Source of the DNA: Candidatus Collierbacteria bacterium RIFOXYD2_FULL_45_13
Lineage (GTDB): Bacteria > Patescibacteriota > Microgenomatia > UBA1400 > MFAQ01
Assembly: GCA_001774685.1 (NCBI GenBank)
Contig: MFAS01000001.1
Location: 415,557-479,556, forward strand
DNA length: 64,000 nt
Direction of reading: 5' to 3'
Shown here: positions 5,107 through 57,376 of the stretch, piece by piece
Position numbering within the stretch: position 1 is the stretch's first letter
Layout of the letters: every line of letters starts with the position of its first letter
The notes under the pieces: generated by a model
What the model was told of the DNA's origin: nothing
Databases searched by the model: none
Seen by the model: only the letters and a program-made list of their open reading frames with translations
Made by a program: the position numbers and the translations under genes

Positions 5107-5975
5107 TACCTGTTATTATAAATTCAGTGATAACCCTTAGTCCCATTACCATTACCAAGGCTTCCGGTGAGCAAGAGCATTTTGATGAATCTAAGCTCGT
5201 AAAGTCTCTAGCCAAAACAGGACTTTCTGTCGACGTTGCCTCACAAACCGTTGACTACCTCAAGCGCCATCTCAGAACCGGCATTACCACCAAAGATATC
5301 CACGGGCACGTTTCCTTCTATCTCAAAGAAAATGCGCCGGTCAGCAACTACTACAACTACGGCCTCAAACGAGCCATTATGGATCTGGGTCCCTCGGGTC
5401 ACCCCTTCGAAACCATTGTGTCTGATGTTCTCTCGGAATACGGATACAAATCCGAAGTTGGCGTCATCGTTCTCGGTAAATGCGTTACTCACGAAATTGA
5501 TGTTGTGGCCAAAAAAGAGACGAAGCAATTTTTTATCGAGTGTAAATTCCACAACAGTCCCGGTGTCAAAACCGATGTTCAGGTTGCTCTCTACACCTAT
5601 GCTCGATTTTTGGACATCAAGTCGGCGATGGAGCAAAGTCACGGAACCAACATTACCTACTACCCATGGTTAGTTACAAACACCAAAGTGACTTCTGAGG
5701 TATTTGACTATGCGGGCTGTGTGGGTTTGGAGCTTACTTCCTGGCTACACCCACAAGGACACGGTATGTCGGATCTGATCATGGCCGCCGGGCTTCATCC
5801 TGTCACCTTGATTTACTCCATTCCCAGATTCAAAATCAACCAGCTTCTGGAGAGGGGAATCGTTACTTGCGCCAGACTTAAAAAGGCGATTGAAGAGAAC
5901 CAAGTCTCCGATATTCTTACTCACGAGGAAATAAATATGACTTTTCAGCATATCAAAGTAATATGTAAAACCTAA
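5070..5975 (+). CDS. ATP-cone domain + Mrr-like PD-(D/E)xK restriction-endonuclease domain protein
   Basis: 'ITKASGEQEHFDESKLVKSL' is an ATP-cone N-terminus. 'HEIDVVAKKETKQFFIECK' is a D...ExK nuclease core. True start probably GTG near 5134 (MITLSPITITK). The first ~20 codons of the ORF are the repeat element. Confidence 0.6.
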   Translation: MRGAGRRGNLTPLPVIINSVITLSPITITKASGEQEHFDESKLVKSLAKTGLSVDVASQTVDYLKRHLRTGITTKDIHGHVSFYLKENAPVSNYYNYGLKRAIMDLGPSGHPFETIVSDVLSEYGYKSEVGVIVLGKCVTHEIDVVAKKETKQFFIECKFHNSPGVKTDVQVALYTYARFLDIKSAMEQSHGTNITYYPWLVTNTKVTSEVFDYAGCVGLELTSWLHPQGHGMSDLIMAAGLHPVTLIYSIPRFKINQLLERGIVTCARLKKAIEENQVSDILTHEEINMTFQHIKVICKT

Positions 5976-6373: not shown

Positions 6374-6697
6374 TTACCCAACGGTCACCCCGATCATGTC
6401 CAGCTTAGGTAGATATCTCTTGATCTCATTTTTAAACTTCTCGGCCAATCCTGCTGAGTAAGTCGCATTCTGGGTATTCTCCATATGTCCACAGAGTTTG
6501 TTTTCATACAGGCGCACGATCTCCATAATTTTTTCCCCCTCGGCATTAAACTCCGCTTGGTGTTTTTGGGGATCTTTTTCATATCTATCGTGTAGCTCCT
6601 GAAAACTATCAAACTCGTTTTCATATTTAGTTACCATTTCTTCAAAAATTTCTTTGAACTTTGCAGCCATGGAAACAATGTTACCAAAACTCCACAA
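6374..6697 (-). CDS. Hypothetical cytoplasmic protein
   Basis: 107 aa charged helical ORF. No recognisable motif. Confidence 0.4.
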   Translation of the reverse strand: MWSFGNIVSMAAKFKEIFEEMVTKYENEFDSFQELHDRYEKDPQKHQAEFNAEGEKIMEIVRLYENKLCGHMENTQNATYSAGLAEKFKNEIKRYLPKLDMIGVTVG

Positions 6698-8090: not shown

Positions 8091-8110
8091 TTTGAGTTTT
8101 TGATTTTTTG
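8091..8110. repeat. 20-nt U-rich motif TTTGAGTTTTTGATTTTTTG (copy 1)
   Basis: Identical 20-mer recurs at 40965-40984. Followed by further GAGTTTTT units. Confidence 0.6.
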
Positions 8111-10266: not shown

Positions 10267-10647
10267 TCAACATTCTGGAAAATATTTCTCAGCCAGCTTC
10301 TTGGCCTGTGTGAAGTAATTATCTCCATCAGTCTTATATCCCTCCGCGGCTTGGTTACGATAAAAACGCAATGGAGGCTCAGCCGGCAGATGATGACTAA
10401 TAAAGACCTCTTCGTGTTTCCAGGTGGCGTAATTGATGATAGCGAGCGCTAGCAGTGTGGCAATTGCTTCAGCTGCATTTTCATCAGTGATGAGGAATAA
10501 TAGCTGACCGGCTTTTCCAGGTTCAAACGAGGCTAGTTGCATCACCACTTCCAGCATATCCGATAAACCAAATGAGCTGGCCAGCTTTGAAACTTCCTTG
10601 ATCACATTATCACTCGGATCAAGATCCAAAATCAGATTGATTACCAT
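10267..10647 (-). CDS. Hypothetical protein
   Basis: 126 aa. No motif. Confidence 0.4.
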   Translation of the reverse strand: MVINLILDLDPSDNVIKEVSKLASSFGLSDMLEVVMQLASFEPGKAGQLLFLITDENAAEAIATLLALAIINYATWKHEEVFISHHLPAEPPLRFYRNQAAEGYKTDGDNYFTQAKKLAEKYFPEC

Positions 10648-19023: not shown

Positions 19024-19034
19024 TGACTGACGAG

Positions 19035-19107
19035 CAGGCCTGGTAGGATTCGAACCTACAACCTTTCGCTTTGGAGGCGACTACTCTACCAATTGAGCTA
19101 CAGACCT
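19035..19107 (-). tRNA. tRNA-Trp (anticodon CCA)
   Basis: Hand-folded cloverleaf. Acceptor AGGTCTG/CAGGCCT (one G-U), D-arm GCTC-AATTGGTA-GAGT, anticodon loop CTCCAAA, T-arm GTAGG-TTCGAAT-CCTAC. CCA not encoded. Confidence 0.75.
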
Positions 19108-19136
19108 CTGTTAATGTGATCCCGGATGGGATCGAG

Positions 19137-19209
19137 CGCCCCGAGCGGGAGTCGAACCCACAACCAACGGCTTAGAAGGCCGGTGCTCTATCCATTGAGC
19201 TATCGGGGC
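19137..19209 (-). tRNA. tRNA-Arg (anticodon TCT)
   Basis: Acceptor GCCCCGA/TCGGGGC, D-arm GCTC-AATGGATA-GAGC, anticodon loop CTTCTAA, T-arm GTGGG-TTCGACT-CCCGC. CCA not encoded. Confidence 0.8.
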
Positions 19210-25380: not shown

Positions 25381-25385
25381 GCTTG

Positions 25386-25459
25386 TGACCCCGGCGGGAA
25401 TCGAACCCGCGATCTTTTGGATGAGAACCAAATGTCCTGGACCGCTAGACGACGGGGCC
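25386..25459 (-). tRNA. tRNA-Glu (anticodon CTC)
   Basis: GGCCCCG-TC-GTCT-AGCGGTCC-AGGACA-TTTGG-TTCTCAT-CCAAA-AGATC-GCGGG-TTCGATT-CCCGC-CGGGGTC-A. Closely parallels the canonical tRNA-Glu fold. CCA not encoded. Confidence 0.8.
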
Positions 25460-46547: not shown

Positions 46548-47657
46548 ATGACTTCAGATTCTCAGATCGATCTAGCCAGCCTCAAAAATAGGGCCAAGGA
46601 TATCGTCGATAAGCTAAACTTACCGGCTCTTCGTTTGGATTTGGAAAAGTTGACTTTTGAGTCGGGGCTGCCGGGTCTCTGGACGGACGAAGCTCACGCC
46701 AAGGACGTTATGTCTCGTGTGGCTGGTGTTCGCGGCTCCATCGAATCGGCTGAAAGGTTGATGGCCGATCTGCAAAGTCTGGGGGAACTTCTGGAAATGT
46801 CAAAAACCTCAGAGGATGAAAGTATGAATAGAGACATCAAGATTCTCTACGAAACTTTACAGAGAAGTGTCGAAAAGATGGAACTCATTACCTTTCTTTC
46901 CGGTATTTACGATTCTTCGGAGGCCGTTTTTTCCATCAAAGCCGGACAGGGAGGTACCGAAGCTATGGACTGGGCGAGCATGCTTAGCCGGATGTATACT
47001 CGTTTTTTTGAGAAAAGAGGTTGGAGTTACGAAACGGTAGAATACTCGCCCGGGGAAGAAGCCGGGATTAAATCTGTCACCTATATTGTGCACGGCCGTT
47101 TCCCCTATGGATATTTGAAAAATGAAAAAGGTACCCACCGCCTGGTCCGGCAGTCTCCGTTCAACGCCGACAAACTGCGACAGACCTCGTTTGCCGGAGT
47201 TGACATCACCCCTCTTCTTCCAGAAGAAGCCGAGGTGGAAATCCGTGACGAAGATATCGAGTTTGAGGCGAGCCGTTCTAGTGGTGCAGGAGGTCAAAAC
47301 GTTAATAAAGTCAGTACGGCTGTTCGCATTAAGCATCTTCCTTCTGGCATCGTCGTCGAGTGCCAGACTCAGCGCTATCAGGATGCGAACAGAAAAATTG
47401 CCATGCAAATACTCAAGTCGAAACTTTGGGAAATTCAGGAAGCCAAGAGACAAGAAGAATTAAACAAAATAAAGGGCCGTGCTACGATCGCTAGTTGGGG
47501 GCACCAGATTCGTTCTTACGTTCTTCATCCTTACAAGCTGGTTAAAGATCTACGCACTGAGTATGAAGAGACCAATCCGGACTCCGTTCTCGATGGTAAC
47601 TTAGATGGCTTTATCGAGTCAGAACTAAAGTACTTCGCCACCACCTCACCACCATGA
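46548..47657 (+). CDS. prfB: Peptide chain release factor 2
   Basis: 'SPF' tripeptide (RQSPFNA) and GGQ ('SGAGGQNVNKVSTAVRIKHLPSG'). A single uninterrupted frame, so no programmed +1 frameshift. Confidence 0.9.
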   Translation: MTSDSQIDLASLKNRAKDIVDKLNLPALRLDLEKLTFESGLPGLWTDEAHAKDVMSRVAGVRGSIESAERLMADLQSLGELLEMSKTSEDESMNRDIKILYETLQRSVEKMELITFLSGIYDSSEAVFSIKAGQGGTEAMDWASMLSRMYTRFFEKRGWSYETVEYSPGEEAGIKSVTYIVHGRFPYGYLKNEKGTHRLVRQSPFNADKLRQTSFAGVDITPLLPEEAEVEIRDEDIEFEASRSSGAGGQNVNKVSTAVRIKHLPSGIVVECQTQRYQDANRKIAMQILKSKLWEIQEAKRQEELNKIKGRATIASWGHQIRSYVLHPYKLVKDLRTEYEETNPDSVLDGNLDGFIESELKYFATTSPP

Positions 47658-47709
47658 GTGTCGGGGGAATCTATATAATTAAGTTTCAATATATTTGATA
47701 AGATAAGTC

Positions 47710-48255
47710 ATGGAAATAAAGACAATCGATCTTGATAGAGCTGACCCCGTTACTCCTAGAGTTGATGAAGTTCCGGTCTATCAACCGAAAATTACTAACA
47801 AAAGCATGATCTCTAAATCAAACATCCTCACCGTAGTTACTTTTATTATTGTGGCGGTTGCCGGTTTTTATACCGGAGCCACTCTAAAAACTTCTCTTGG
47901 TGGTAAAACGGCCGGAAGTACCTCGGGAGATTTGAAGAACATCCAAGCCGAAGTACCGGTCACAGGGGTCAAAGTCGGAGACATCTATGGTTCCCCGGAT
48001 GAAAAGGCTTTCAACACCACCGCTACCGGCGTGCTCGACAAAGGCGGTCTCAACGGAGAAGGTACTCACAAGCTGGTACGCCCCGGCGGTCCTTCTCAAA
48101 CTGTTTACATGACCAGTTCCGTAATTGATTTGGATACTCTCATTGGGCACCAAATCACTGTCTGGGGAGAAACATTCAAAGGCCAAAAGGCTGGTTGGCT
48201 AATGGATGTCGGTCGTGTTAAGGTTGAAAACCTGAACATGCCCTTACCAAAATAA
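47710..48255 (+). CDS. Membrane-anchored hypothetical protein
   Basis: N-terminal TM 'ILTVVTFIIVAVAGFY', Gly-rich domain. Confidence 0.45.
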   Translation: MEIKTIDLDRADPVTPRVDEVPVYQPKITNKSMISKSNILTVVTFIIVAVAGFYTGATLKTSLGGKTAGSTSGDLKNIQAEVPVTGVKVGDIYGSPDEKAFNTTATGVLDKGGLNGEGTHKLVRPGGPSQTVYMTSSVIDLDTLIGHQITVWGETFKGQKAGWLMDVGRVKVENLNMPLPK

Positions 48256-48262
48256 CGATCCC

Positions 48263-48306
48263 GTCATTGCGAGTTTCGTACTCGAACCGTGGCAATCTCA
48301 CTCCAC
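48263..48306. repeat. Dispersed repeat copy D
   Basis: GTCATTGCGAG at 48263-48273 and GGCAATCTCACTCCAC at 48291-48306. Intergenic, upstream of ftsE. Confidence 0.8.
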
Positions 48307-48344
48307 ACAGTCAACGATAATTAATAATTAGACGGCATACAACC

Positions 48345-49133
48345 TTGATTGATTTTTCCCATATTACCAAGTCGTACCCCAATGGCGATGTGGTTCTGAA
48401 TGATGTAAATTTTTCCGTCTCACCTGGAGAATTTGTCGTGATCACCGGTAAGTCCGGAGCCGGGAAAACTACCTTGGGGCGTTTACTTATTCGCGATCTT
48501 CTTCCCATCAAAGGGAAAATAGTTATCGATGGTGAAGATCTTAATCAGATTAAACCGAAAAATATACCCCTGATCAGAAGAAAGGTGGGGTTCGTCTTTC
48601 AAGATTACAAAATTATTCCGGATAAAACTATCGGTGAAAACATCACTATCGCCTTGGAGATTGGTGGATACAACCGCAAAAAAATCCAGGAAAAGATTAC
48701 GGAATTACTCAAAATTGTTGGGATACCGGGTAAAGAGCATTTATTTCCTGGTCAACTATCCGGTGGAGAAGTTCAGCGAGCCGCTATTGCCCGAGCCATC
48801 GCTTGCGAGCCGGCCATTTTATTCGCCGATGAACCTACAGGGAACCTTGACAAAGATACCTCTGTTGAAATCTTTAACCTCCTCAAAAAAATCAACGATG
48901 GTGGTACCACCGTTATCTTGGCCACTCACGATGTTACCTTGATCGGTTTGAACCCGGATCGCAATATCCATCTGGAAAAGGGTAAGATAGTTTCAGATGT
49001 CGATGGCAAACCATCCAAATCGGAGCCATCTTCCGATTCCTCGTCATTGCGAGAAGGTACTCCGACGTGGCCCGCTGGTCCCCGAAGGGGGAAATCTCAC
49101 TCCACCAAGCGTAAAATAAATATCAATAAATGA
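48345..49133 (+). CDS. ftsE: Cell-division ABC ATPase FtsE (with ~35-aa C-terminal extension created by an in-frame repeat)
   Basis: 'GKSGAGKTT', 'LSGGEVQRAAIARAI' and 'LFADEPTGNLD'. The C-terminal 'SSLREGTPTWPAGPRRGKSHST' is the translation of repeat copy E. Stop overlaps the ftsX start (ATGA). Confidence 0.85.
   Translation: MIDFSHITKSYPNGDVVLNDVNFSVSPGEFVVITGKSGAGKTTLGRLLIRDLLPIKGKIVIDGEDLNQIKPKNIPLIRRKVGFVFQDYKIIPDKTIGENITIALEIGGYNRKKIQEKITELLKIVGIPGKEHLFPGQLSGGEVQRAAIARAIACEPAILFADEPTGNLDKDTSVEIFNLLKKINDGGTTVILATHDVTLIGLNPDRNIHLEKGKIVSDVDGKPSKSEPSSDSSSLREGTPTWPAGPRRGKSHSTKRKININK
49043..49105. repeat. Dispersed repeat copy E (long variant, inside ftsE 3' end)
   Basis: GTCATTGCGAG at 49043-49053, extra GC hairpin CCCC-GAAG-GGGG, right motif AAATCTCACTCCAC at 49092-49105. 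Confidence 0.75.
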
Positions 49134-50035
49134 ACACCGCTCTAAAAAATATCCGCCGCTCGCCCTTTCAAGCCTTGTCTGCTGTTTTTATTATTAGTCT
49201 GACCCTCTTCGTAGTTGGCATCTTTACCCTGGTCACTCTAGCCTCTCACGTTATCCTACTCAATTTCGAAACCAAACCCCAGATCATTGCCTACCTTAAA
49301 GATGGCCATACTACGGACCAAGTAGCCGGGCTCATCAGCACCATGACTTCTACCCAAGGCGTCAAAAATGCCGTGTACATCAGTAAGGCAGAAGCCTTGG
49401 AGATTTACAAAAAGAGCGTCGGCAATGACCCGGTATTGTTGGGCACCGTTACGGACTGGGGGATTGTCACCGCCGATATCCTCCCGGCCAGCGTCGAAAT
49501 CACCGCTTCCGATCCAAGTGCTTTCAATACTATTGTTTCTATCATGGAGAAATCAGACATTGTCAGCGCCACGCCACAAGGAAAAAAAGAAATCGACTTT
49601 CCCCAGGACGTCATTTCTGAGCTTACCAAATGGACCAACGCCATTCGCGGAGCCGGACTGATCCTCATCATCGCTCTGACATTTGTTTGTATTTTGACCG
49701 TCATGATTATTATTTCCATGAAAATTTCGGGCAGAAGGACTGAAATTAGCACCCTCAAACTTTTGGGAGCTCAAAACCTCTACATCATCAAGCCTTATAT
49801 TACCGAATCTCTTATCTACGGCTTATTGGGAGCCTTCTTCGGTTGGACTCTTAGCTACATCGCCCTTCTTTATTCCACCCCCTTTCTGGCACCCAGGCTT
49901 GGAGGCGTCATTTCTTTCCCCATACCTTACTGGATCAACCTTTCCCTCCTGGTTGGTTTACTGGCTTTTGGTTTAATCCTGTCTCTCATCTCTAGCTTTT
50001 TTGCCGCCGCTAGATTTGTCAAGAGATCAAGATGA
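49130..50035 (+). CDS. ftsX: Cell-division permease-like protein FtsX
   Basis: N-terminal TM, periplasmic domain, three C-terminal TMs. Adjacent to ftsE. Confidence 0.85.
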   Translation: MNTALKNIRRSPFQALSAVFIISLTLFVVGIFTLVTLASHVILLNFETKPQIIAYLKDGHTTDQVAGLISTMTSTQGVKNAVYISKAEALEIYKKSVGNDPVLLGTVTDWGIVTADILPASVEITASDPSAFNTIVSIMEKSDIVSATPQGKKEIDFPQDVISELTKWTNAIRGAGLILIIALTFVCILTVMIIISMKISGRRTEISTLKLLGAQNLYIIKPYITESLIYGLLGAFFGWTLSYIALLYSTPFLAPRLGGVISFPIPYWINLSLLVGLLAFGLILSLISSFFAAARFVKRSR

Positions 50036-51249
50036 AAAAAGTTTGTTTGCTACTTGCCGCCTTATTTTTTCTGATGGTCCCCACGAAAATATTTGCGGTT
50101 AATTGTGATGATAAGCCAGCCGACAATCTTAGTCAAACTGACCTGGAGACCTTTTGGAAAGATGTCAGTACTGCATGCGCCACCCAGATTGCCCAAAACC
50201 GAAATGACCAAAACACTCTCAAGCAAGCAATCTCGTCTCTAAACGCCAAAATCAACTTGACTCAAGCCCAGATAAATCAAACTACGGTTCAAATTGCCTC
50301 ACTAGAAAAAGATATTACCGTCTTGAGTGGCGTCTTGGAGACAGTCAATCAATCAGTAATCGAACTCACACAAATATATCTGGCACGGGTAAAAGAAAGT
50401 TATCGACGCACACGGATCACTCCTGTCGATCTGATTTTTTCGACAAATTCTTTTGGTGACTACTTTACAAAACTCAAATACCTAAATTCTCTCAAGGCTA
50501 AAGATCAGCTTATCCTGGCAGAACTGGAAAATTCGCGAAAAGATTACGACTTACGCAAACAAACGAAAATCACAAAACAACTAGAAATTGAAAAGCTCAA
50601 GACAAAGCTCATCACACAGCAAAAGGTTATAGTGACCCAGCAAAAAGACAAACAAAGCCTGCTCGCTTCGACGCAAAATGATGAAAAAAGATTTCAAGAT
50701 CTTCTAAAACAGGCTAATGCTCAAGTCGCGGCCTTCAAGAAATTTACTTCTGGAGCAACTCCTCTATCCAATCAGACTCATTGCGATGGCTGGGGTTGTT
50801 ATTACAGTCAGCGTGATTCGGCCTGGTTTTATCACAATATTGGCAACTCCCCCGAAATTTTGGGTCAAGTTGGGTGTTTGATAACCTCCACCGCCATGGT
50901 TGCTTCTCACTATGGTAAAAGTTTAAAGCCTAGTGATATCGCCAGTAGCAACGAACCCTTTTTCCTGGACACTGCTTATATGAAATTTGACCCATGGTCT
51001 GTCAACGGTGTCCAGATAATTCGATCCACTATCAGTAAAGACAAGGCCGACGAAGAGATCAATGCCGGTCGGCCGGTAATCGCCGGTCTCAATACGGGTA
51101 ATGGAACCCATTTCATCGTTCTGAAAGGCAAAGATGGCGACAACTACATTATGAATGATCCTTATATGGAGAATGGCTATGATAAGCCATTTTCTGGCAC
51201 ATATAATCTAAACCAGGTTTTTCGATTTGATAAAGTTTCTGTCAATTAA
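50032..51249 (+). CDS. Secreted coiled-coil + CHAP/C39-like cysteine peptidase (PcsB/EnvC-like putative FtsEX-activated cell-wall hydrolase)
   Basis: Signal peptide, ~230-aa coiled coil, C-terminal domain with Cys in 'GQVGCLITSTAMV' and His in 'GTHFIVLKG'. Overlaps the ftsX stop. Confidence 0.55.
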   Translation: MKKVCLLLAALFFLMVPTKIFAVNCDDKPADNLSQTDLETFWKDVSTACATQIAQNRNDQNTLKQAISSLNAKINLTQAQINQTTVQIASLEKDITVLSGVLETVNQSVIELTQIYLARVKESYRRTRITPVDLIFSTNSFGDYFTKLKYLNSLKAKDQLILAELENSRKDYDLRKQTKITKQLEIEKLKTKLITQQKVIVTQQKDKQSLLASTQNDEKRFQDLLKQANAQVAAFKKFTSGATPLSNQTHCDGWGCYYSQRDSAWFYHNIGNSPEILGQVGCLITSTAMVASHYGKSLKPSDIASSNEPFFLDTAYMKFDPWSVNGVQIIRSTISKDKADEEINAGRPVIAGLNTGNGTHFIVLKGKDGDNYIMNDPYMENGYDKPFSGTYNLNQVFRFDKVSVN

Positions 51250-51252
51250 TCT

Positions 51253-51543
51253 AAAAAAAAGAAGCCTCCCGTTACACGGGAGGCTCTCACCAATAAGAGT
51301 CGACTTCAGAAGTTCACCCCCCAGTGGAGGGCACCTTTTTGAACCAGTCGATAATACGGTTCAAACGCGGTACTTCTTTGTCAACTTCTCCCACCGGAAG
51401 GTGGAATCGGGCTTAAAACCCGGGCACGGAGTCGCACCGTGCACTAAAGGCAAGCTCCGGGAACAAGGCTAGGCACTGGAGGTCGGGAAACCCGAACTCT
51501 ATATACACCCAAACGCCCCATGCCCAGACCGCCTTTTAACAAC
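51253..51543 (-). ncRNA. Candidate ~290-nt structured ncRNA (unassigned family)
   Basis: Minus strand. Consensus promoter TTGACA-16-TATAAT (plus coordinates 51576-51549). GC-rich body with hairpins CCACC-GGAA-GGTGG, GCACGG-AGTCGCA-CCGTGC and TCGGG-AAA-CCCGA. Ends in the terminator GCCTCCCG-UGUAA-CGGGAGGC plus UUCUUUUUUUU. No credible ORF. Confidence 0.4.
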
Positions 51544-51548
51544 TTTGT

Positions 51549-51576
51549 ATTATAAGCCCAAGTTTCTCATTGTCAA
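51549..51576 (-). promoter_or_regulatory. Consensus sigma70 promoter overlapping helicase stop codon
   Basis: Minus reading: TTGACA (plus 51576-51571), 16-nt spacer, TATAAT (plus 51554-51549). Confidence 0.5.
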
Positions 51577-54461
51577 GCCTTTTTAAGGACTTCTTTCAGC
51601 TTCAATCCTATCTTAGAGACCCCCTTTTCTTCCGTTACACTCAGCACTTCCACGCGGACCAGGTCACCTATACTCAGGATGTCGCTCGGCTTGTTTACCC
51701 ATGTGCCCATCTTGGAGATGTGGATCAGGCCTTGGTAGCCAAGATCCAGGGAAACAAACGTTCCGAAAGCCGCAAAATTGACTACTCTTGCTTCCAGAAG
51801 TTGTCCAACTTTGTACCGGTTTATCGGGCTATTTTCCGGAATAGCCAGGCTCATCCTAATGCTCTGACGTTCCTTGTCGAACTCGATCACCTTAGCTTTG
51901 ATAGACTCACCGTGACGAATTACTTGGGTAGCGTCTTTGATGAACGAGCTCTTGTTGATTTCACTGACATGGATATAGACATTCATATTTTCCGGAGTAT
52001 TGGCAAAGACGCCTCCACTGATGACGGATTTAACTTTCACTTCCAGAACCCGTCCCAAAGGATAAGTCTTGGCCATGCTTCTTTCCCAATCTTCCTCGAC
52101 CAATGCGATGGCCTCCTCGAGAGTCAGGTCCATCCCTTCGAAAACCCGGGCACAGGCCTCATCGGCATCATCGTTTGCGTCCAATCCAATCAGCTCTCTC
52201 GCCAGTGCAAGCGACGAAAGATTGTCAGCAACGCTTTTTGCTACCGCCTTTTTTCGTTCTGCCGGTAAGAACATCTGATAAGTAGCGCTCGTACCGCTAT
52301 CAGCAGAAATCTTCGGGTTGTAGGAATACCCGCTTTCGGCCACTTCTTTGTAAGGTATGCAATAAGCCAAAATCATTCTTGCCCGGTTAAGCAATCGGAA
52401 ATCAATTTCTCGGAAGTTGCTATCTTTTTTGTGGGTATTCAACAGTCTTAGTATCTGATTCCGCTCGGTGTCAACCTCTTCAATTACCTGCATATTTACG
52501 TAGTATTCTGCACACCAGATTTCCCGGCGTTCGGCCAAACTCTGTTTCTTCACCGATTTTTTCTGACGTTCGGGCGGACTGATCCACAATTGGTAGAGTT
52601 TCAAAATAAACTCCACGTCGTCTTTGCAGTTTTTCCAAAGTAGCTGGTGGGCTATTTTAGCCTTTTGAGCTTCTTTTTTATCCCAATCGTCATTCGATGT
52701 CAACAAGTATTTGTGACCACCATTCTTAATGACCGGCAGTAATGTAGCTACCTCCACTGCACAGCCAAATCTATCGGAAAGAATAATAAGGTCGGTCAGT
52801 TTGCTGGTGTAAGCAAACTCCCTGAGCATAGATCCGTACTCCGTGAGCATCTCATCTTCGTCGATAGCCTTACTCGCCTTTAGTGAGGTAAGCGATCTGG
52901 AAAGTTCGGCTTCTTTTGGTTTTTCAATCCAACCCTCACCGAGGTCATCCACGCCCAATCTTTTTAGAAGCAAGACGATTTCTTCCATAGACGATCTTTG
53001 AATCGCCGGAATGGGGAAGGGGAGCATCGATTTAAACTGTTCTTCCGAATACAAGCAATAAACATCACCTGGTGCAGTTCTTCCCGAGCGTCCCCATCTT
53101 TGTTTAGCGTTTGCTTGGGAAATTAGAGTCAGACCGACTTTGGTTTCCAAAGTCTCCGACCTCCAGTTGGCTTGATTTTCAACTCCGGTTTCTACCACAT
53201 AGACAACCCCGGAAACCGTCACCGACGCTTCGGCGACATTAGTACTGACGATCACACGAATCTTGCCAGAGTTTGAATCTCTCAGAACAACATCCTTCAC
53301 TCCCTTATCCAGGTCGCTGTAAAGAGGATAAACTTCGACCTTATCTCGAAGGTTGTCACTCTGCCCAATCGCTTTCTTCAATCCCGACACGGCTTCCTCA
53401 ATCGGTTTTACTCCTTGAAGAAAAGCCAGGATGTTTCCCTTAACTTTTCTACCGGAGAGTTGCTCGTTGAGTAACCACATTACCTTTTTTGTCATGGCCG
53501 AAACAATCAAGTTCCTTAAATGTGGTGGGTTGTCGTAGGGCAGCTTTTCACTTTCGGGAGCAAAATTAACCTTGTATTCAAACTTTCTTTTTGCTTCAAA
53601 CTCGATAATTTTGGCCGTATCACAGCCAAAGTAGTTTAGGAAAAGATTTTTGTTGATCGTCGCACTGACGATTAGCACTTTTAAATGGGGATAAAGCGGC
53701 AATTGATCTTTCAGAAGCCGCAAAATGATATCGATGTTCTCCGATCTTTCATGAGCTTCATCGATCATCACCACACTCAAGTCCGACAGCTGACCTTTCA
53801 TAATCATATTGATCAGACTTCCGTCGGTAGCCAAAAACGCCGCATTAAAACGATCGGTATTTCGGTCCTTACTGTACCGGTATCCAATATCAAAACCCTT
53901 ACCGACAGTCGATCCAAGTAGCACCCCCATATATTCTGCAATGGAGGTAGTGGCTACGATTCTCGGCTGGGTGATCAGGATTTGGCCGTCACGGATAAAG
54001 AAATCTGCGGGCACTCCTTTTGGAGGAAAAATCAGCCAGTAGGGGAGGGCCGTGGACTTTCCGGATCCGGTCTCCCCGATAATAATGGCTACCTGATGGT
54101 TCTTATCTTTTAACCACTGATAAATTTCTACAATTTTATCCGGAGTAGCCCCAAATTGAGTTTCATCAAAGGTGGACGGTTTCTCCACTTTCGTATGGGG
54201 TCTCTGCGGATGATAAACCATCCCCAATTCTCCAGGGAGAGCGATCGAGAGATCCTCTCCAGGGAGTGTCTTCACCGAGAAATAAGCCGCTCCCATCGTC
54301 ATTTTTTCCAAGAGTAGTGCTTTGCGGCACTCTTCACAATATTCCGGGCGTGACTGCCCATACTCTTTAATTTTTTCGTACATCATTCCGGAGTATCCAA
54401 TTTCAATTCCACACCTCTTACACTTGACCGTATACTCTACCGTTGTTCTGGTCATTGTCAC
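51573..54461 (-). CDS. DEAH-box ATP-dependent RNA helicase (HrpA/HrpB-like) with N-terminal zinc ribbon and C-terminal tandem S1 domains
   Basis: 'GETGSGKST', 'DEAHERS', 'SAT', 'QRWGRSGR'. N-terminal CxxC...CxxC. C-terminal S1-like repeats 'GRVLEVKV...' and 'GQLLEARVVNF...'. Confidence 0.85.
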   Translation of the reverse strand: MTMTRTTVEYTVKCKRCGIEIGYSGMMYEKIKEYGQSRPEYCEECRKALLLEKMTMGAAYFSVKTLPGEDLSIALPGELGMVYHPQRPHTKVEKPSTFDETQFGATPDKIVEIYQWLKDKNHQVAIIIGETGSGKSTALPYWLIFPPKGVPADFFIRDGQILITQPRIVATTSIAEYMGVLLGSTVGKGFDIGYRYSKDRNTDRFNAAFLATDGSLINMIMKGQLSDLSVVMIDEAHERSENIDIILRLLKDQLPLYPHLKVLIVSATINKNLFLNYFGCDTAKIIEFEAKRKFEYKVNFAPESEKLPYDNPPHLRNLIVSAMTKKVMWLLNEQLSGRKVKGNILAFLQGVKPIEEAVSGLKKAIGQSDNLRDKVEVYPLYSDLDKGVKDVVLRDSNSGKIRVIVSTNVAEASVTVSGVVYVVETGVENQANWRSETLETKVGLTLISQANAKQRWGRSGRTAPGDVYCLYSEEQFKSMLPFPIPAIQRSSMEEIVLLLKRLGVDDLGEGWIEKPKEAELSRSLTSLKASKAIDEDEMLTEYGSMLREFAYTSKLTDLIILSDRFGCAVEVATLLPVIKNGGHKYLLTSNDDWDKKEAQKAKIAHQLLWKNCKDDVEFILKLYQLWISPPERQKKSVKKQSLAERREIWCAEYYVNMQVIEEVDTERNQILRLLNTHKKDSNFREIDFRLLNRARMILAYCIPYKEVAESGYSYNPKISADSGTSATYQMFLPAERKKAVAKSVADNLSSLALARELIGLDANDDADEACARVFEGMDLTLEEAIALVEEDWERSMAKTYPLGRVLEVKVKSVISGGVFANTPENMNVYIHVSEINKSSFIKDATQVIRHGESIKAKVIEFDKERQSIRMSLAIPENSPINRYKVGQLLEARVVNFAAFGTFVSLDLGYQGLIHISKMGTWVNKPSDILSIGDLVRVEVLSVTEEKGVSKIGLKLKEVLKKA

Positions 54462-54590: not shown

Positions 54591-55739
54591 TTAGCTCCAG
54601 ACCCTTCCTTCCTCATATTCTTCCCCAAAATAATAATGAGGAATTACCTCCAACTCCGGCGCCGATTTTTCTCTTTTCAACAGTTCTTCAGTTAGCGCTC
54701 GATAAAAACCAACCACAGCCGGCTGGAATCCAGTCTGGAAGAAGGCGATTCGATAGATCCCCTCACTCCGTAATTTTTCGAAAATTTCTTTCGCTCTTAC
54801 ATAAGCCGCCTCATCCGATTCTGCGGCTGTTTTCCCGATGGAGATTTCCTGGTTTCGGAAGAAATACACCTTCACCACCTCGTCCATTTCATGATGCCTT
54901 CCGCTCATCATTCCCACGTTTAAGATGGGATGTTTGGACAAAGCCTTCAGTTTTTCACTTCTAAACTTAAGACAGCGGATCGGTAATGGTTTGCCTTTCG
55001 ATCCGTCAGCGTAAATTACCGGTAAATACATCGGTCTTCCACCTTGATATACAAATTCGCGCAGTATCTCGGTAATGACATTGTGTGCCAGATCACTAAA
55101 ATTGACACCCGTCTGAATTCCTTTCTCCATATCAGCGATCACGGTGTTGATCTGATTCCTGAGGGCCATGAACGAGTTAACGTCTTTGGCGGAGGTAATC
55201 TTGTCGCTCACAGGAATTGATAAAAATTTAGATATCAGTCCGTCTTCGGGATTTACCTCTGCATCTTCGGTAATCAGCTGCTCTTGCAGTTCCAGTATGT
55301 GTAACTTATTTTTTTCGGCATCACGATAGAAGCGTATTTTTTCTTGTATTTCTTTCCGGTCGGAAACGCCTGCCCGCTTTACCAGGTTTTCGAACAGACT
55401 GATCTGCTCGGTGATTTTGGACCATGGACAGAAGTTGGCCGATACTCTAGCGGACCTGAATTCAACAGGGAAACGTGCCTGTATTTGCAGCAGAAGTTCA
55501 AAATACTCGATTCCCAACTCCACTGACCGAACCGATTTATTCATACCGATAAAACTACCCAAGTATTCCATTCGGTCACACAGGATATGATAACGCCGCT
55601 GTTCATCATCGGGGTTTACCCCCTTCCTCAAACGCTCTTCGATCTTGAGGGCTTTAGACATCAGTACCCTCAAGTCAAGCCTCTCGACGAGGCATGCATC
55701 ATCAGGAACGGCAATCAGCTTTATGGAAGTTTTCATCAT
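54591..55739 (-). CDS. Hypothetical protein (operon gene 3, 382 aa)
   Basis: No recognisable motif. Start overlaps the stop of gene 2 (4 nt). Confidence 0.5.
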   Translation of the reverse strand: MMKTSIKLIAVPDDACLVERLDLRVLMSKALKIEERLRKGVNPDDEQRRYHILCDRMEYLGSFIGMNKSVRSVELGIEYFELLLQIQARFPVEFRSARVSANFCPWSKITEQISLFENLVKRAGVSDRKEIQEKIRFYRDAEKNKLHILELQEQLITEDAEVNPEDGLISKFLSIPVSDKITSAKDVNSFMALRNQINTVIADMEKGIQTGVNFSDLAHNVITEILREFVYQGGRPMYLPVIYADGSKGKPLPIRCLKFRSEKLKALSKHPILNVGMMSGRHHEMDEVVKVYFFRNQEISIGKTAAESDEAAYVRAKEIFEKLRSEGIYRIAFFQTGFQPAVVGFYRALTEELLKREKSAPELEVIPHYYFGEEYEEGRVWS

Positions 55740-56890
55740 TGCCGCGTTCTCCTTCCTGTTTCCAAACGACGGATTGCCTCTTTGTCCAAACTCGTCATAC
55801 TATCCGGCGCCAACATCAAATACACACCCTCCTTTTTTAATTGGCTGATAATCTGAGTTTGAAAGGCGAGGGATACATCTTCAAAGTCACGAGGAACTAG
55901 ATAGAAGACCATGGTAGTAGCGTCTTTTCGGTACTTGGCAATCAGTTTTTTCAAACTTCCCAAATCGTTCAGAAAATATTTTTGAATTTCTCCATCCGAC
56001 CTGGCTCGGACCAGTACCACCATGCGCTGGCCGGCAGAGAGCATTTTATTCTCATCGATCCACGGAATCATTAGTTCAGTGTCGGCATGATATATTTTGG
56101 CAAAATAAACCGAGTCAAAATCAATAGCCAGAGGGGATTCTTCATCTTCCGACTCCACGATTTGACCACCTTCAAACAGCTCGGTTCTGAGCAGTTTTCT
56201 ATCCAGCACTCCTCCCAAGATCGCCGATCCGGCTACTCGTAGGTCGTTGAGATACAAGTGTCTGTCTTCAGGATCCGAGGCACTTTGTAGCAACCTCTCC
56301 GGGTGACGGCTGCCGAGAATAATAGATTCTGCTTCCGACAAACTCCAGACTCCTCCCATTATCAAGAAACATACTCTCTCTGGAGAAATTAGTTTATCTA
56401 CTGCCATCTTCATAATCTTTTCTTTGGCTGTCTGAGAAAATCCGGCCAGACCAAGATACAATTGTCGTGCTTCAAAAGGCGTAATATGGCCTTCAAAAAC
56501 ATGTTTGAGCTTGACACCCATCTCGATAGCTAGGTCGCAAATGTAGGCAGGAACCCGGCCACCCTCGACATTCGAAGTAAAGACGATTTCCATCGACCCG
56601 CCACATTTGTAGCTTTCGGAAAGTAAAAAACCCAGAGCTACTTTTGCTCCGCTGTTTTCTACATACTGCGGGGGGTTGGCAATCAGACAGACGTCGACCT
56701 CTAGAAAGTTTCCTTTGCGGTTATGTTTAACCACCAAGAGCGAAAAAACAATATCTCTTGAACACCAGCGGTAAGGCCGATAGTCAAAGTTTTTTGGCAG
56801 CTTATTTCTTTTCCGGAACGAATTCTCATAATCGGTTACATGTTTCTTAAATGCTTCAAGACCATGCAGAACCTCTTCGGTTGTCGGCAT
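55736..56890 (-). CDS. Hypothetical protein (operon gene 2, 384 aa)
   Basis: No recognisable motif. Confidence 0.5.
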   Translation of the reverse strand: MPTTEEVLHGLEAFKKHVTDYENSFRKRNKLPKNFDYRPYRWCSRDIVFSLLVVKHNRKGNFLEVDVCLIANPPQYVENSGAKVALGFLLSESYKCGGSMEIVFTSNVEGGRVPAYICDLAIEMGVKLKHVFEGHITPFEARQLYLGLAGFSQTAKEKIMKMAVDKLISPERVCFLIMGGVWSLSEAESIILGSRHPERLLQSASDPEDRHLYLNDLRVAGSAILGGVLDRKLLRTELFEGGQIVESEDEESPLAIDFDSVYFAKIYHADTELMIPWIDENKMLSAGQRMVVLVRARSDGEIQKYFLNDLGSLKKLIAKYRKDATTMVFYLVPRDFEDVSLAFQTQIISQLKKEGVYLMLAPDSMTSLDKEAIRRLETGRRTRQ

Positions 56891-56899
56891 ATTCTCTCC

Positions 56900-57376
56900 T
56901 CATCTTAGTTGTGTTACATCAACGAGCTGAGATTCCGGGTCGATATGAATTACCAAGAACTCAACATTAGCCGCTCCAACCCGAAGAATTTCTTCTCCGA
57001 TCATTGCATTGGCAGCCGAATAGAAACTAGAAGTTGGGTCACACATCAGGGTGGCTTTGTACTCTACCCACTCGACAGACCCTTCCCGTCCGTGAACTGT
57101 ATCTTTCAAAGATGCCACTCCGGAAGACTTGGTGGCCTTTGCCTCCACTATTACGAGCTTACCGGCTCCATCTCGAAACACGTTGTCATAGCCATGAATT
57201 TTTTTGTCAAATCGCTCTGTTCCCAAATTTAGTTCTTTGACAGCGTGCTCCGTAGCCATTTGTTCTCCCAGATCACCCTGCCAGATGTTTCCATATCTCT
57301 GGACAGTATTTAAGACAACCAAAGCAATATAACCCGCATCTTCTTCGGTCGGAATTTTTCCGCAGCATTGGGACAT
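56900..57376 (-). CDS. Mrr-like PD-(D/E)xK nuclease-domain protein (operon gene 1, 158 aa)
   Basis: 'HGYDNVFRDGAGKLVIVEAK' closely parallels 'HEIDVVAKKETKQFFIECK' of the ATP-cone/Mrr protein at 5070. Same D...(E)xK core spacing. Confidence 0.45.
   Translation of the reverse strand: MSQCCGKIPTEEDAGYIALVVLNTVQRYGNIWQGDLGEQMATEHAVKELNLGTERFDKKIHGYDNVFRDGAGKLVIVEAKATKSSGVASLKDTVHGREGSVEWVEYKATLMCDPTSSFYSAANAMIGEEILRVGAANVEFLVIHIDPESQLVDVTQLR

Follow-up and report, generated by a model that had tools for sequence, protein, structure and literature searches.

Bacterial Y RNAs (YrlA), which are encoded beside the rsr gene for Ro60 and are compared here on the generally known features of the Ro-Y RNA system, and OLE RNA, which is encoded beside oapA, the gene of its protein partner, are among the closest described systems to the noncoding RNA (ncRNA) considered here, together with small RNAs (sRNAs) of the MicL/DapZ type, which are shorter RNAs that depend on Hfq and regulate by base-pairing through a conserved single-stranded seed. 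The RNA in question is encoded on the minus strand, promoter included, at positions 51253-51576 of a 64,000-nucleotide stretch of the genome of Candidatus Collierbacteria bacterium RIFOXYD2_FULL_45_13 (contig MFAS01000001.1; the whole stretch is referred to below as the window), at the 3' end of a gene for an RNA helicase. It very probably represents a genuine, previously uncatalogued family of structured ncRNAs of Candidatus Collierbacteria and related Microgenomates (Patescibacteria). An earlier note on this DNA, made from the sequence alone, had put forward a candidate novel structured ncRNA at this place, and the proposal is supported by the lack of any Rfam family, by conserved homologous loci and by covarying helices. 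The family is a new member of a familiar kind, the orphan structured bacterial ncRNAs, and its unusual features are the loss and re-ordering of modules, the fusion of its promoter to an upstream stop codon, and a host from the Candidate Phyla Radiation (CPR).

Predicted transcription unit at the end of the helicase gene

The unit is delimited by three features.

51549..51576, minus strand: sigma-70-type promoter, with the -35 hexamer TTGACA at 51576-51571, a 16-nt spacer and the -10 hexamer TATAAT at 51554-51549
51537..51545, minus strand: short 5' tail AAGUUGUUA, with the transcription start predicted at about 51544-51542 from the distance to the -10 hexamer
51253..51288, minus strand: intrinsic terminator, whose 11-bp stem at 51286-51262 includes 7 G-C pairs and leads into C and eight T

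The TTGACA-16-TATAAT promoter described in the earlier note is indeed present on the minus strand of the window, with 12 of 12 hexamer positions matching the consensus. It had been placed directly past the helicase stop codon; instead, the helicase open reading frame (ORF) ends ...AAG GCT TGA, and this TGA (51575-51573) falls within the -35 hexamer (T-TGA-CA). Ribosomes that stop at the end of the helicase frame and RNA polymerase that recognises the promoter would thus use the same six bases. About 290 nt separate the predicted start from the T-run of the terminator, which is as strong and as distant as had been claimed, and whose tail after the stem, CTTTTTTTT, reaches 51253, 4 nt past the stop codon of a convergent C39-peptidase/PcsB-like gene (50032-51249, plus strand). 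The region in between is, as also reported, richer in G+C (0.53-0.57 at 51300-51524) than its flanks (0.36-0.48). On these signals the RNA is predicted to be transcribed strongly and independently from its own consensus promoter and to stop at the intrinsic terminator; it would also form the 3' end of helicase operon transcripts by read-through, because no terminator lies between helicase and RNA.

Taken within the window alone, these signals are not significant by themselves, with four promoter-like sites found against 1.5 ± 1.5 expected, and one terminator against 1.4 expected. They exceed chance because the arrangement recurs in 14 further loci (L081, L083, L084, L091, L092, L098, L099, L118, L119, L120, L121, L122, L123 and L124) and because the helices covary. 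The DNA of these relatives was found by exact-protein look-ups and by a metagenome scan seeded with the family-specific helicase N-terminus; when the full-length helicase alignment served as the seed, generic DEAH motifs led to 80 distant HrpA loci (Actinobacteria, Proteobacteria).

With the window included, the promoter-RNA-terminator unit is present 3' of an orthologous helicase in 15 distinct loci, at helicase identities down to about 55%. Every one of the 14 loci scored has a TTGACA -35 hexamer between -17 and +6 nt relative to the helicase stop codon and a good -10 hexamer 16-17 nt after it; the promoter of L124, read by eye, is similar (TTGACA-17-GATAAT). The fusion seen in the window, in which the helicase TGA is the TGA of TTGACA, is shared by seven others of the loci scored (8/14 in all). 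Furthermore, the 5' tail AAGUUGUUA is similar to the (U)AGUUAA(A) of L084, L122 and L123. The comparison with homologous regions that the earlier note had called for thus finds the whole unit kept downstream of the orthologous helicase: the distance from promoter to terminator in the 14 further loci is 180-300 nt, containing a structured RNA and no credible ORF, and in all relatives the 3' end of the RNA is a terminator hairpin with a T-run. The gene past the RNA, in contrast, differs by locus and is a convergent PcsB-like, glycosyltransferase, NUDIX, FrsA-like or unknown gene; in the window and in L122, L123 and L084 the RNA faces a convergent gene, and the downstream genes elsewhere are mutually unrelated. 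The conserved junction is therefore the one with the helicase.

Fold and covariation of the RNA

The minimum free energy (MFE) of the 293-nt stretch is -125.2 kcal/mol (z = -4.9), a value matched by 0 of 200 dinucleotide shuffles, in keeping with the stable, hairpin-rich transcript of the earlier description. Without its terminator the window RNA still has a folding z-score of -3.4, and the terminator-free z-scores are negative in 15 of 15 RNAs and -2.1 or lower in 12 of them. Each RNA, folded separately, gives a common architecture, which in the MFE fold of the window RNA comprises the following parts.

51446..51536, minus strand: domain A, a long irregular hairpin with closing stem AAAGGC/GCCUUU and tip UCGGG-UUU-CCCGA
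51424..51442, minus strand: hairpin B, a 6-bp stem GCACGG/CCGUGC with the 7-nt loop UGCGACU
51408..51422, minus strand: hairpin C, CGGGU-UUUAA-GCCCG, with a single C between it and B and an A after it
51391..51404, minus strand: hairpin D, CCACC-UUCC-GGUGG
51295..51390, minus strand: domain E, the universal core, with helices Y and X and a three-way junction with two hairpins
GUUGAC 51385-51380 / GUCGAC 51304-51299, minus strand: helix Y, the outer helix of E
AGAAGU 51377-51372 / ACUUCU 51313-51308, minus strand: helix X of E, with an internal loop AA/GAA between Y and X
ACC/GGU with hairpin 1 (51365-51338) and hairpin 2 (51332-51316), minus strand: three-way junction of E

All three hairpin stems singled out in the earlier note are found in this fold. 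The GCACGG/CCGUGC hairpin stands as described, and the CCACC/GGUGG and UCGGG/CCCGA stems are likewise present; the loops given for the latter two were read from the plus strand, and the transcribed strand has UUCC in place of a GGAA tetraloop and UUU in place of a GAAA-type loop (AAA on the plus strand).

The RNA is thus built of separately folding modules, namely A, an optional B-C-D block, and a universal E, in which the three-way junction is stacked on the coaxial helices Y and X. Across the relatives, domain A is a variable hairpin closed by AAAG.../...CUUU, and its closing stem is kept with other sequences (AAAAAUUAAC/GUUAAUUUUU in L098, AAAAUUCG/CGAAUUUU in L124 and AAAGGCUA/UAGUCUUU in L123, read by eye). 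Hairpins B, C and D are joined through single-nucleotide linkers. Hairpin B has a 6-7-bp stem in the relatives and a 7-nt, T-loop-like loop, UGARAYU, whose first base is U and whose fifth is A in most of them; hairpin C reads CCGG...CCGA in the general plan of the family; and the position of D is occupied by a hairpin in every relative having B-C-D, with its sequence not conserved. In domain E, helix Y has the near-palindromic family consensus GUURAC/GUYRAC, and the junction joiners are purine-rich ((A/U)AGGA, often AAAUG).

Two further features of the window RNA bear on its fold. An alternative pairing of 51542-51528 with 51384-51363 (minus strand) can be drawn, consisting of UUGUUAA/UUGACAA, which takes up the 5' strand of Y plus AA, and AAGGCGGU/ACCGCGUU; it would compete with helices A, Y and X. 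In addition, AGAAGU occurs twice (51389-51384 and 51377-51372), which offers the 3' strand of helix X a choice of two partners. Neither the pairing nor the duplication is conserved beyond the closest relatives, and a conformational switch in the window RNA is possible but unsupported.

The covariation test proposed in the earlier note gave a positive answer. A covariance model, R1, was built from the window, L092 and L081, and seven family members were aligned to give alignment A8. In A8, 83.3% of cells are paired, compared with 60.5 ± 2.1% after shuffling (reached by none of 500 shuffles), and both sides change in 39 of 51 pairs (22.3 ± 2.9 when shuffled); when the pairing partners are slid by 1-3 columns, pairing falls to 32-41%. 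Hairpin B (helix 1) is 100% paired and hairpin C (helix 2) 97.5%, each with changes on both sides in four of six pairs; hairpin D (helix 3) is 71% paired, with both sides changing in all five pairs; and within domain E, helices Y and X are 94.7% and 94.1% paired, respectively. A manual alignment of Y and X over all 15 RNAs is 90.6% paired against 60.6 ± 2.3% shuffled, a value that none of 5000 shuffles reaches, and the slid controls pair at 36-40%. Changes on both sides occur there in 11 of 13 pairs, a count reached by 274 of the 5000 shuffles. The variants of helix X illustrate the point directly (AGAAGU/ACUUCU, AGAAGC/GCUUCU, ACGCAUU/AAUGCGU, AAGGAGA/UCUCUUU and AAUCACA/UGUGAUU). Furthermore, when RNAalifold is given an unfitted MAFFT alignment of five E domains, helices Y and X and the two inner hairpins emerge unaided.

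Some points about the models and alignments count against the picture drawn here. A8 is biased towards the structure built into its covariance model, and Y and X were aligned by hand with an eye to pairing, hence not blind. R1 with default filters misses most of the divergent members; with the filters off, these score weakly (E 0.07-4), yet at the expected place and on the expected strand. The family membership of L119, the weakest member, rests partly on position and on folds judged by eye, as does the detailed alignment of L098, L099 and L124. A second model, R2, which includes the window RNA among its building sequences, finds exactly one copy in the window (78 bits, E = 6e-18). Among phage and plasmid collections, blastn of the RNA found no match, and a pattern scan of viral contigs for CCGGAUC...GAUCCGGWAGGA gave 33 loci, which are regarded as chance matches because R2 confirms none of them.

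The recurrence of promoter and fold also bears on an alternative that the earlier note itself had set against a novel ncRNA, according to which the element is a mere long structured 3' untranslated region (UTR) of the helicase mRNA; it would then block exonucleases and provide the terminator region, and its promoter-like sequence would go unused. This description is partly true, in that no terminator separates the helicase stop codon from the RNA and transcripts run through, and it is not exclusive of a separate ncRNA. As the whole explanation it is quite improbable, because a 12/12 or near-consensus promoter is found at the same place in 15 loci despite diverged surroundings, and because one hairpin would suffice to stabilise a 3' end, whereas here a multi-domain fold is conserved and the helices of its three-way junction covary.

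Gain, loss and re-ordering of modules

Without the terminator, the RNAs of the family span 150-260 nt, and their modules behave as separable units. The B-C-D block is absent from L122, L123 and L091, which consist of A and E only, and domain A is nearly absent in L120. In L084, the order of modules is A-E-B-C-D rather than A-B-C-D-E (RNA at 5274-5552; covariance-model match to B-C-D at 5459-5564, E read from the sequence). E is considered the core of the family because the other blocks are gained, lost or moved.

Some 1 kb downstream (6461-6555), L084 carries another E-like element; it is partial, ends in a terminator of its own, follows two small ORFs and adjoins the convergent PcsB-like gene. 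Its helix X is intact and the 5' strand of its helix Y is unrecognisable; the element may be a remnant of an insertion or duplication.

A coding region is incompatible with such a history, because whole modules have been gained, lost or moved between relatives. The minus-strand ORFs in the RNA region of the window have at most 32 aa and no family match. The plus-strand ORF of 81 aa (51227-51472), which the earlier note had dismissed as spurious, is indeed without a Pfam match and spans a stretch wholly absent from L122 and L123. Seven relatives share an AAUG where the 3' strand of helix X begins; the frames downstream of it, read by eye, have 3-20 codons and are unconserved.

Comparison with catalogued RNA families

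At Rfam 15 gathering thresholds, the whole 64-kb window, out of a genome of about 1.09 Mb, yields three tRNAs only, and the RNA matches no family. The tRNA genes (Trp-CCA, Arg-TCT and Glu-CTC, at 19034-19209 and 25385-25459, minus strand) are the sole catalogued RNAs of the window. When the threshold is relaxed to E <= 10 for the RNAs of the window, L123 and L083, only sub-threshold matches appear (RsaH, Phe_leader, PyrR, FMN, serC, NsiR1, Qrr and similar), and most are driven by the terminator; FMN, the best match not so driven, reaches 14.2 bits (E = 1.2), below its gathering score of 66.2. The Rfam search suggested in the earlier note therefore assigns no family at either level, which agrees with that note's own failure to recognise RNase P RNA, transfer-messenger RNA (tmRNA), signal recognition particle (SRP) RNA or a cobalamin element. 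Literature searches turned up nothing on the RNA described here or on ncRNAs of Microgenomates.

Individual candidates were rejected as follows. For tmRNA, which has a tag reading frame and a tRNA-like acceptor and T-arm made by its two ends, ARAGORN finds just the three tRNAs in the window and Rfam gives no tmRNA match. SRP RNA, marked by a domain IV hairpin with a GNAR tetraloop and conserved AGCA/GGAA internal loops, has no Rfam match in the RNAs of the window, L123 and L083; an SRP-like UCCGGAAGGA string in L081 and L122 is, in the RNAalifold structure, the end of a helix plus a junction and forms no tetraloop hairpin. The fold is a series of independent domains, unlike 6S RNA, in which the two ends close one long irregular hairpin around a large central bubble, and there is no Rfam 6S match. 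A riboswitch or leader (FMN or cobalamin, both considered on account of a GGUGAAAxUCC-like loop in hairpin B) is countered by the weakness of the FMN match, by the lack of any cobalamin match and by the lack of a regulated downstream gene; the resemblance to GGUGAAAxUCC is explained by the T-loop-like character of the loop of hairpin B and has no model support. A bacterial Y RNA was likewise set aside, there being no TROVE domain in the neighbouring genes and no Rfam match.

The known universal RNA that required most attention is RNase P RNA, since Lui et al. 2021 (PMC8172020) report that some of its CPR forms score under the Rfam cut-offs and are without P12-P14 and P18. That the window RNA is an extremely diverged form of such a universal RNA, above all of RNase P RNA, is nonetheless very improbable. 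The two are alike in length (about 290 nt), in the strong promoter and terminator that suit a housekeeping RNA, in the T-loop-like loop of hairpin B, as in the RNase P specificity domain, and in belonging to a lineage where canonical models fail; furthermore, the E <= 10 cut-off would hide RNase P matches of 5-14 bits. In the window only, the alternative pairing described above (UUGUUAA/UUGACAA with AAGGCGGU/ACCGCGUU) can be drawn as a P2/P4-like pseudoknot beside an ACAAAG that resembles the ACAGAA motif. However, RNase P is rejected because this pairing is unconserved (L120 is without its 5' part and L122 without the complement) and clashes with the covarying helices A, Y and X. The P4 signature GGAAAGUCC / ACAGAAnCCGGCUUA, a bulged-U P4 and ACAGAA are all missing from the window RNA, and its domains are arranged serially and not nested within P1/P2/P4. 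No model of RNase P, SRP, tmRNA or 6S RNA matches the RNAs of the window, L123 and L083 at E <= 10, a limit under which matches below about 12-14 bits go unlisted, and ARAGORN reports no tmRNA. The smallest members of the family, at about 150 nt without terminator, are also too small; no bacterial RNase P RNA as short as this is known.

The helicase and its gene neighbourhood

Upstream of the RNA, the minus strand carries the helicase gene and a conserved string of genes, which provide context and are not part of the RNA.

51573..54461, minus strand: RNA helicase gene, 962 aa, with Pfam DEAD, Helicase_C and two S1 domains
54591..57376, minus strand: conserved gene string upstream of the helicase, three genes
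54591-55739, minus strand: gene of a 382-aa protein with a SAVED-like fold (predicted structure and fold search)
55736-56890, minus strand: gene of a 384-aa protein with a restriction-endonuclease-like fold (predicted structure and fold search)
56900-57376, minus strand: gene of a 158-aa protein

The helicase has a Cys-rich, Zn-ribbon-like N-terminal segment, a DEAH/HrpA-like core and two C-terminal S1 domains, and its NCBIfam matches to HrpA/HrpB are partial and below cutoff. The three proteins encoded upstream have no match in Pfam, NCBIfam, PADLOC or PDB-sequence searches; only structure prediction with fold search gave leads, and the similarities found are moderate (8-12% identity). Two of these proteins are 100% identical to hypothetical proteins of Collierbacteria RIFOXYB2_FULL_46_14 and GW2011_GWC2_44, and most relatives have the string of three genes. 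In other phyla, SUKH/SMI1-KNR4 domains are found on homologues of the 384-aa protein, and a distant metagenome-assembled genome (MAG), L126, repeats the order small protein, SUKH-nuclease-like protein, 412-aa protein, helicase. The C-terminal ~160 residues of the 382-aa protein also have homologues of about 40% identity in Actinobacteria (Rhodococcus, Streptomyces, Nocardia and Pseudarthrobacter). Because the gene order recurs in L126 and SUKH homologues occur in other phyla, the helicase is regarded as part of an old, undescribed four-gene module with a conflict or RNA-surveillance flavour. The RNA is a later addition at the 3' end of this module in Collierbacteria-like lineages.

It is unlikely that the RNA is a component of a conflict- or defence-like system formed with the four upstream genes, acting as an inhibitor or antitoxin-like element, a decoy substrate or a specificity element. 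PADLOC gives no matches beyond a generic similarity of the helicase to Cas3, the fold similarities are only moderate, and a distant version of the module does without the RNA; moreover, the position of the module is stable and it diverges in parallel with its neighbours, unlike patchy defence islands. A related proposal is that the RNA is an integral, lineage-specific subunit of the widespread module of small protein, restriction-endonuclease-like protein, SAVED-like protein and helicase, within which a structured RNA would gate or target a nuclease-helicase machine. This, too, is doubtful; if true, ultra-small CPR bacteria would possess in this module an RNA-containing surveillance or immune system of a new kind.

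On the other side of the RNA lie convergent housekeeping genes (46548-51249, plus strand), encoding an RF2-like protein (PCRF/RF-1), a 181-aa unknown protein, an FtsE-like ABC ATPase, FtsX and a 405-aa protein. The last is PcsB-like, with a coiled coil and a C39-like peptidase domain; in L084 and L123 the protein at the same position bears an M23 peptidase domain instead, as if the hydrolase domain had been exchanged on a PcsB-like scaffold.

Relation of the RNA to the helicase

For the function of the RNA, we tentatively favour a role tied to the neighbouring gene: the RNA may bind the adjacent Zn-ribbon/DEAH/S1 helicase as a partner or regulate it, or may be used by the helicase or its module. 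It could act as a scaffold, cofactor or decoy for the helicase, with domain E as the core binding platform and with A and B-C-D as accessory modules for binding or tertiary contacts. Three features point to the helicase in particular, namely the helicase-RNA junction, which stays within ±17 nt with the stop codon inside the -35 hexamer in 8 of 14 loci, the change of gene on the other side of the RNA, and the pair of S1 RNA-binding domains on the protein.

Several observations run counter to such a link. The partner function is suggested purely by position, with the pairs rsr-Y RNA and OLE-oapA as analogies, and synteny within one clade can be inherited without a functional link. No RNA gene follows the helicase in L103/L104 (helicase stop at 8092), where a terminator alone is found at +62, nor in the distant MAG L126 (helicase stop at 10437), where the gap downstream is 106 nt, and no RNA was found downstream of the helicase in L107, L112 and L116. 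The helicase family does not need the RNA in general, because distant orthologues are without it, and the RNA is confined to one sub-clade of helicase-bearing organisms.

This restricted distribution would also suit a trans-acting or housekeeping RNA, either a regulatory sRNA or the partner of some other protein, that is unrelated to the helicase and owes its position to shared descent. The perfect promoter and the terminator of its own, which make it independent of helicase transcription, fit such an RNA, as does a neighbourhood that is otherwise of housekeeping type (FtsE/FtsX/PcsB-like, RF2). We nevertheless regard this alternative as somewhat unlikely: in 15 loci the boundary with the helicase holds to within a few nucleotides, in contrast to the freely varying flank on the other side, and it is helices and junctions that are conserved, with no long conserved single-stranded seed of the kind typical of base-pairing sRNAs standing out.

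The interest of the family lies partly in its hosts, since the genomes of Patescibacteria are tiny, with little DNA to spare, and these mostly uncultured bacteria have hardly been searched for ncRNA. The RNA is likely to matter to these cells, because a multi-domain RNA of 150-260 nt is kept behind a perfect promoter in tiny genomes. The arrangements A-B-C-D-E, A-E and A-E-B-C-D also provide a natural example of modular RNA evolution, and the fixed position of the RNA beside a SAVED-like/nuclease-like/helicase string that is conserved across phyla opens a way into that module. The RNA is a concrete target for RNA sequencing, structure probing and helicase-binding assays.

Comparison with described RNA systems

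Compared with ToxI-like RNAs of type III toxin-antitoxin systems and other defence RNAs, the window locus has in common an RNA gene coupled to nuclease-like and sensor-like genes and, possibly, an inhibitory role. It differs in that the RNA is not a tandem repeat array and lies 3' rather than 5' of the protein genes, and in its lack of a PADLOC match and its association with one lineage.

The arrangement at the end of the helicase gene resembles that of the MicL/DapZ-type 3'-UTR sRNAs, whose promoters likewise overlap the end of the upstream ORF, whose terminators are common to mRNA and sRNA, and in which the same sequence is both a 3' UTR and a separate small RNA. The window RNA is far larger than these, and its conservation resides in helices and junctions.

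With OLE, raiA, ROOL, GOLLD and HEARO, the family shares its discovery by comparative genomics, covarying multi-helix folds, restriction to certain lineages and a function initially unknown. In contrast to these RNAs, it has no Rfam 15 match, is smaller (even its longest members, without terminator, have 260 nt), occurs in Patescibacteria and shows presence, absence and re-ordering of modules.

The bacterial Y RNAs offer a parallel in organisation, as modular, highly structured ncRNAs of 100-300 nt that adjoin the gene of an RNA-binding or RNA-remodelling protein, have transcription signals of their own and contain a T-loop-type hairpin module. Differences are evident in the components: the window locus has no Ro/TROVE protein, no Rfam Y_RNA/YrlA match and no long 5'/3' closing stem with a Ro-binding bulge, and the neighbour of the RNA is a DEAH/S1 helicase in place of rsr. 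The two systems are nevertheless likely to be alike in their logic, in which an RNA would tether or gate an RNA-processing enzyme.

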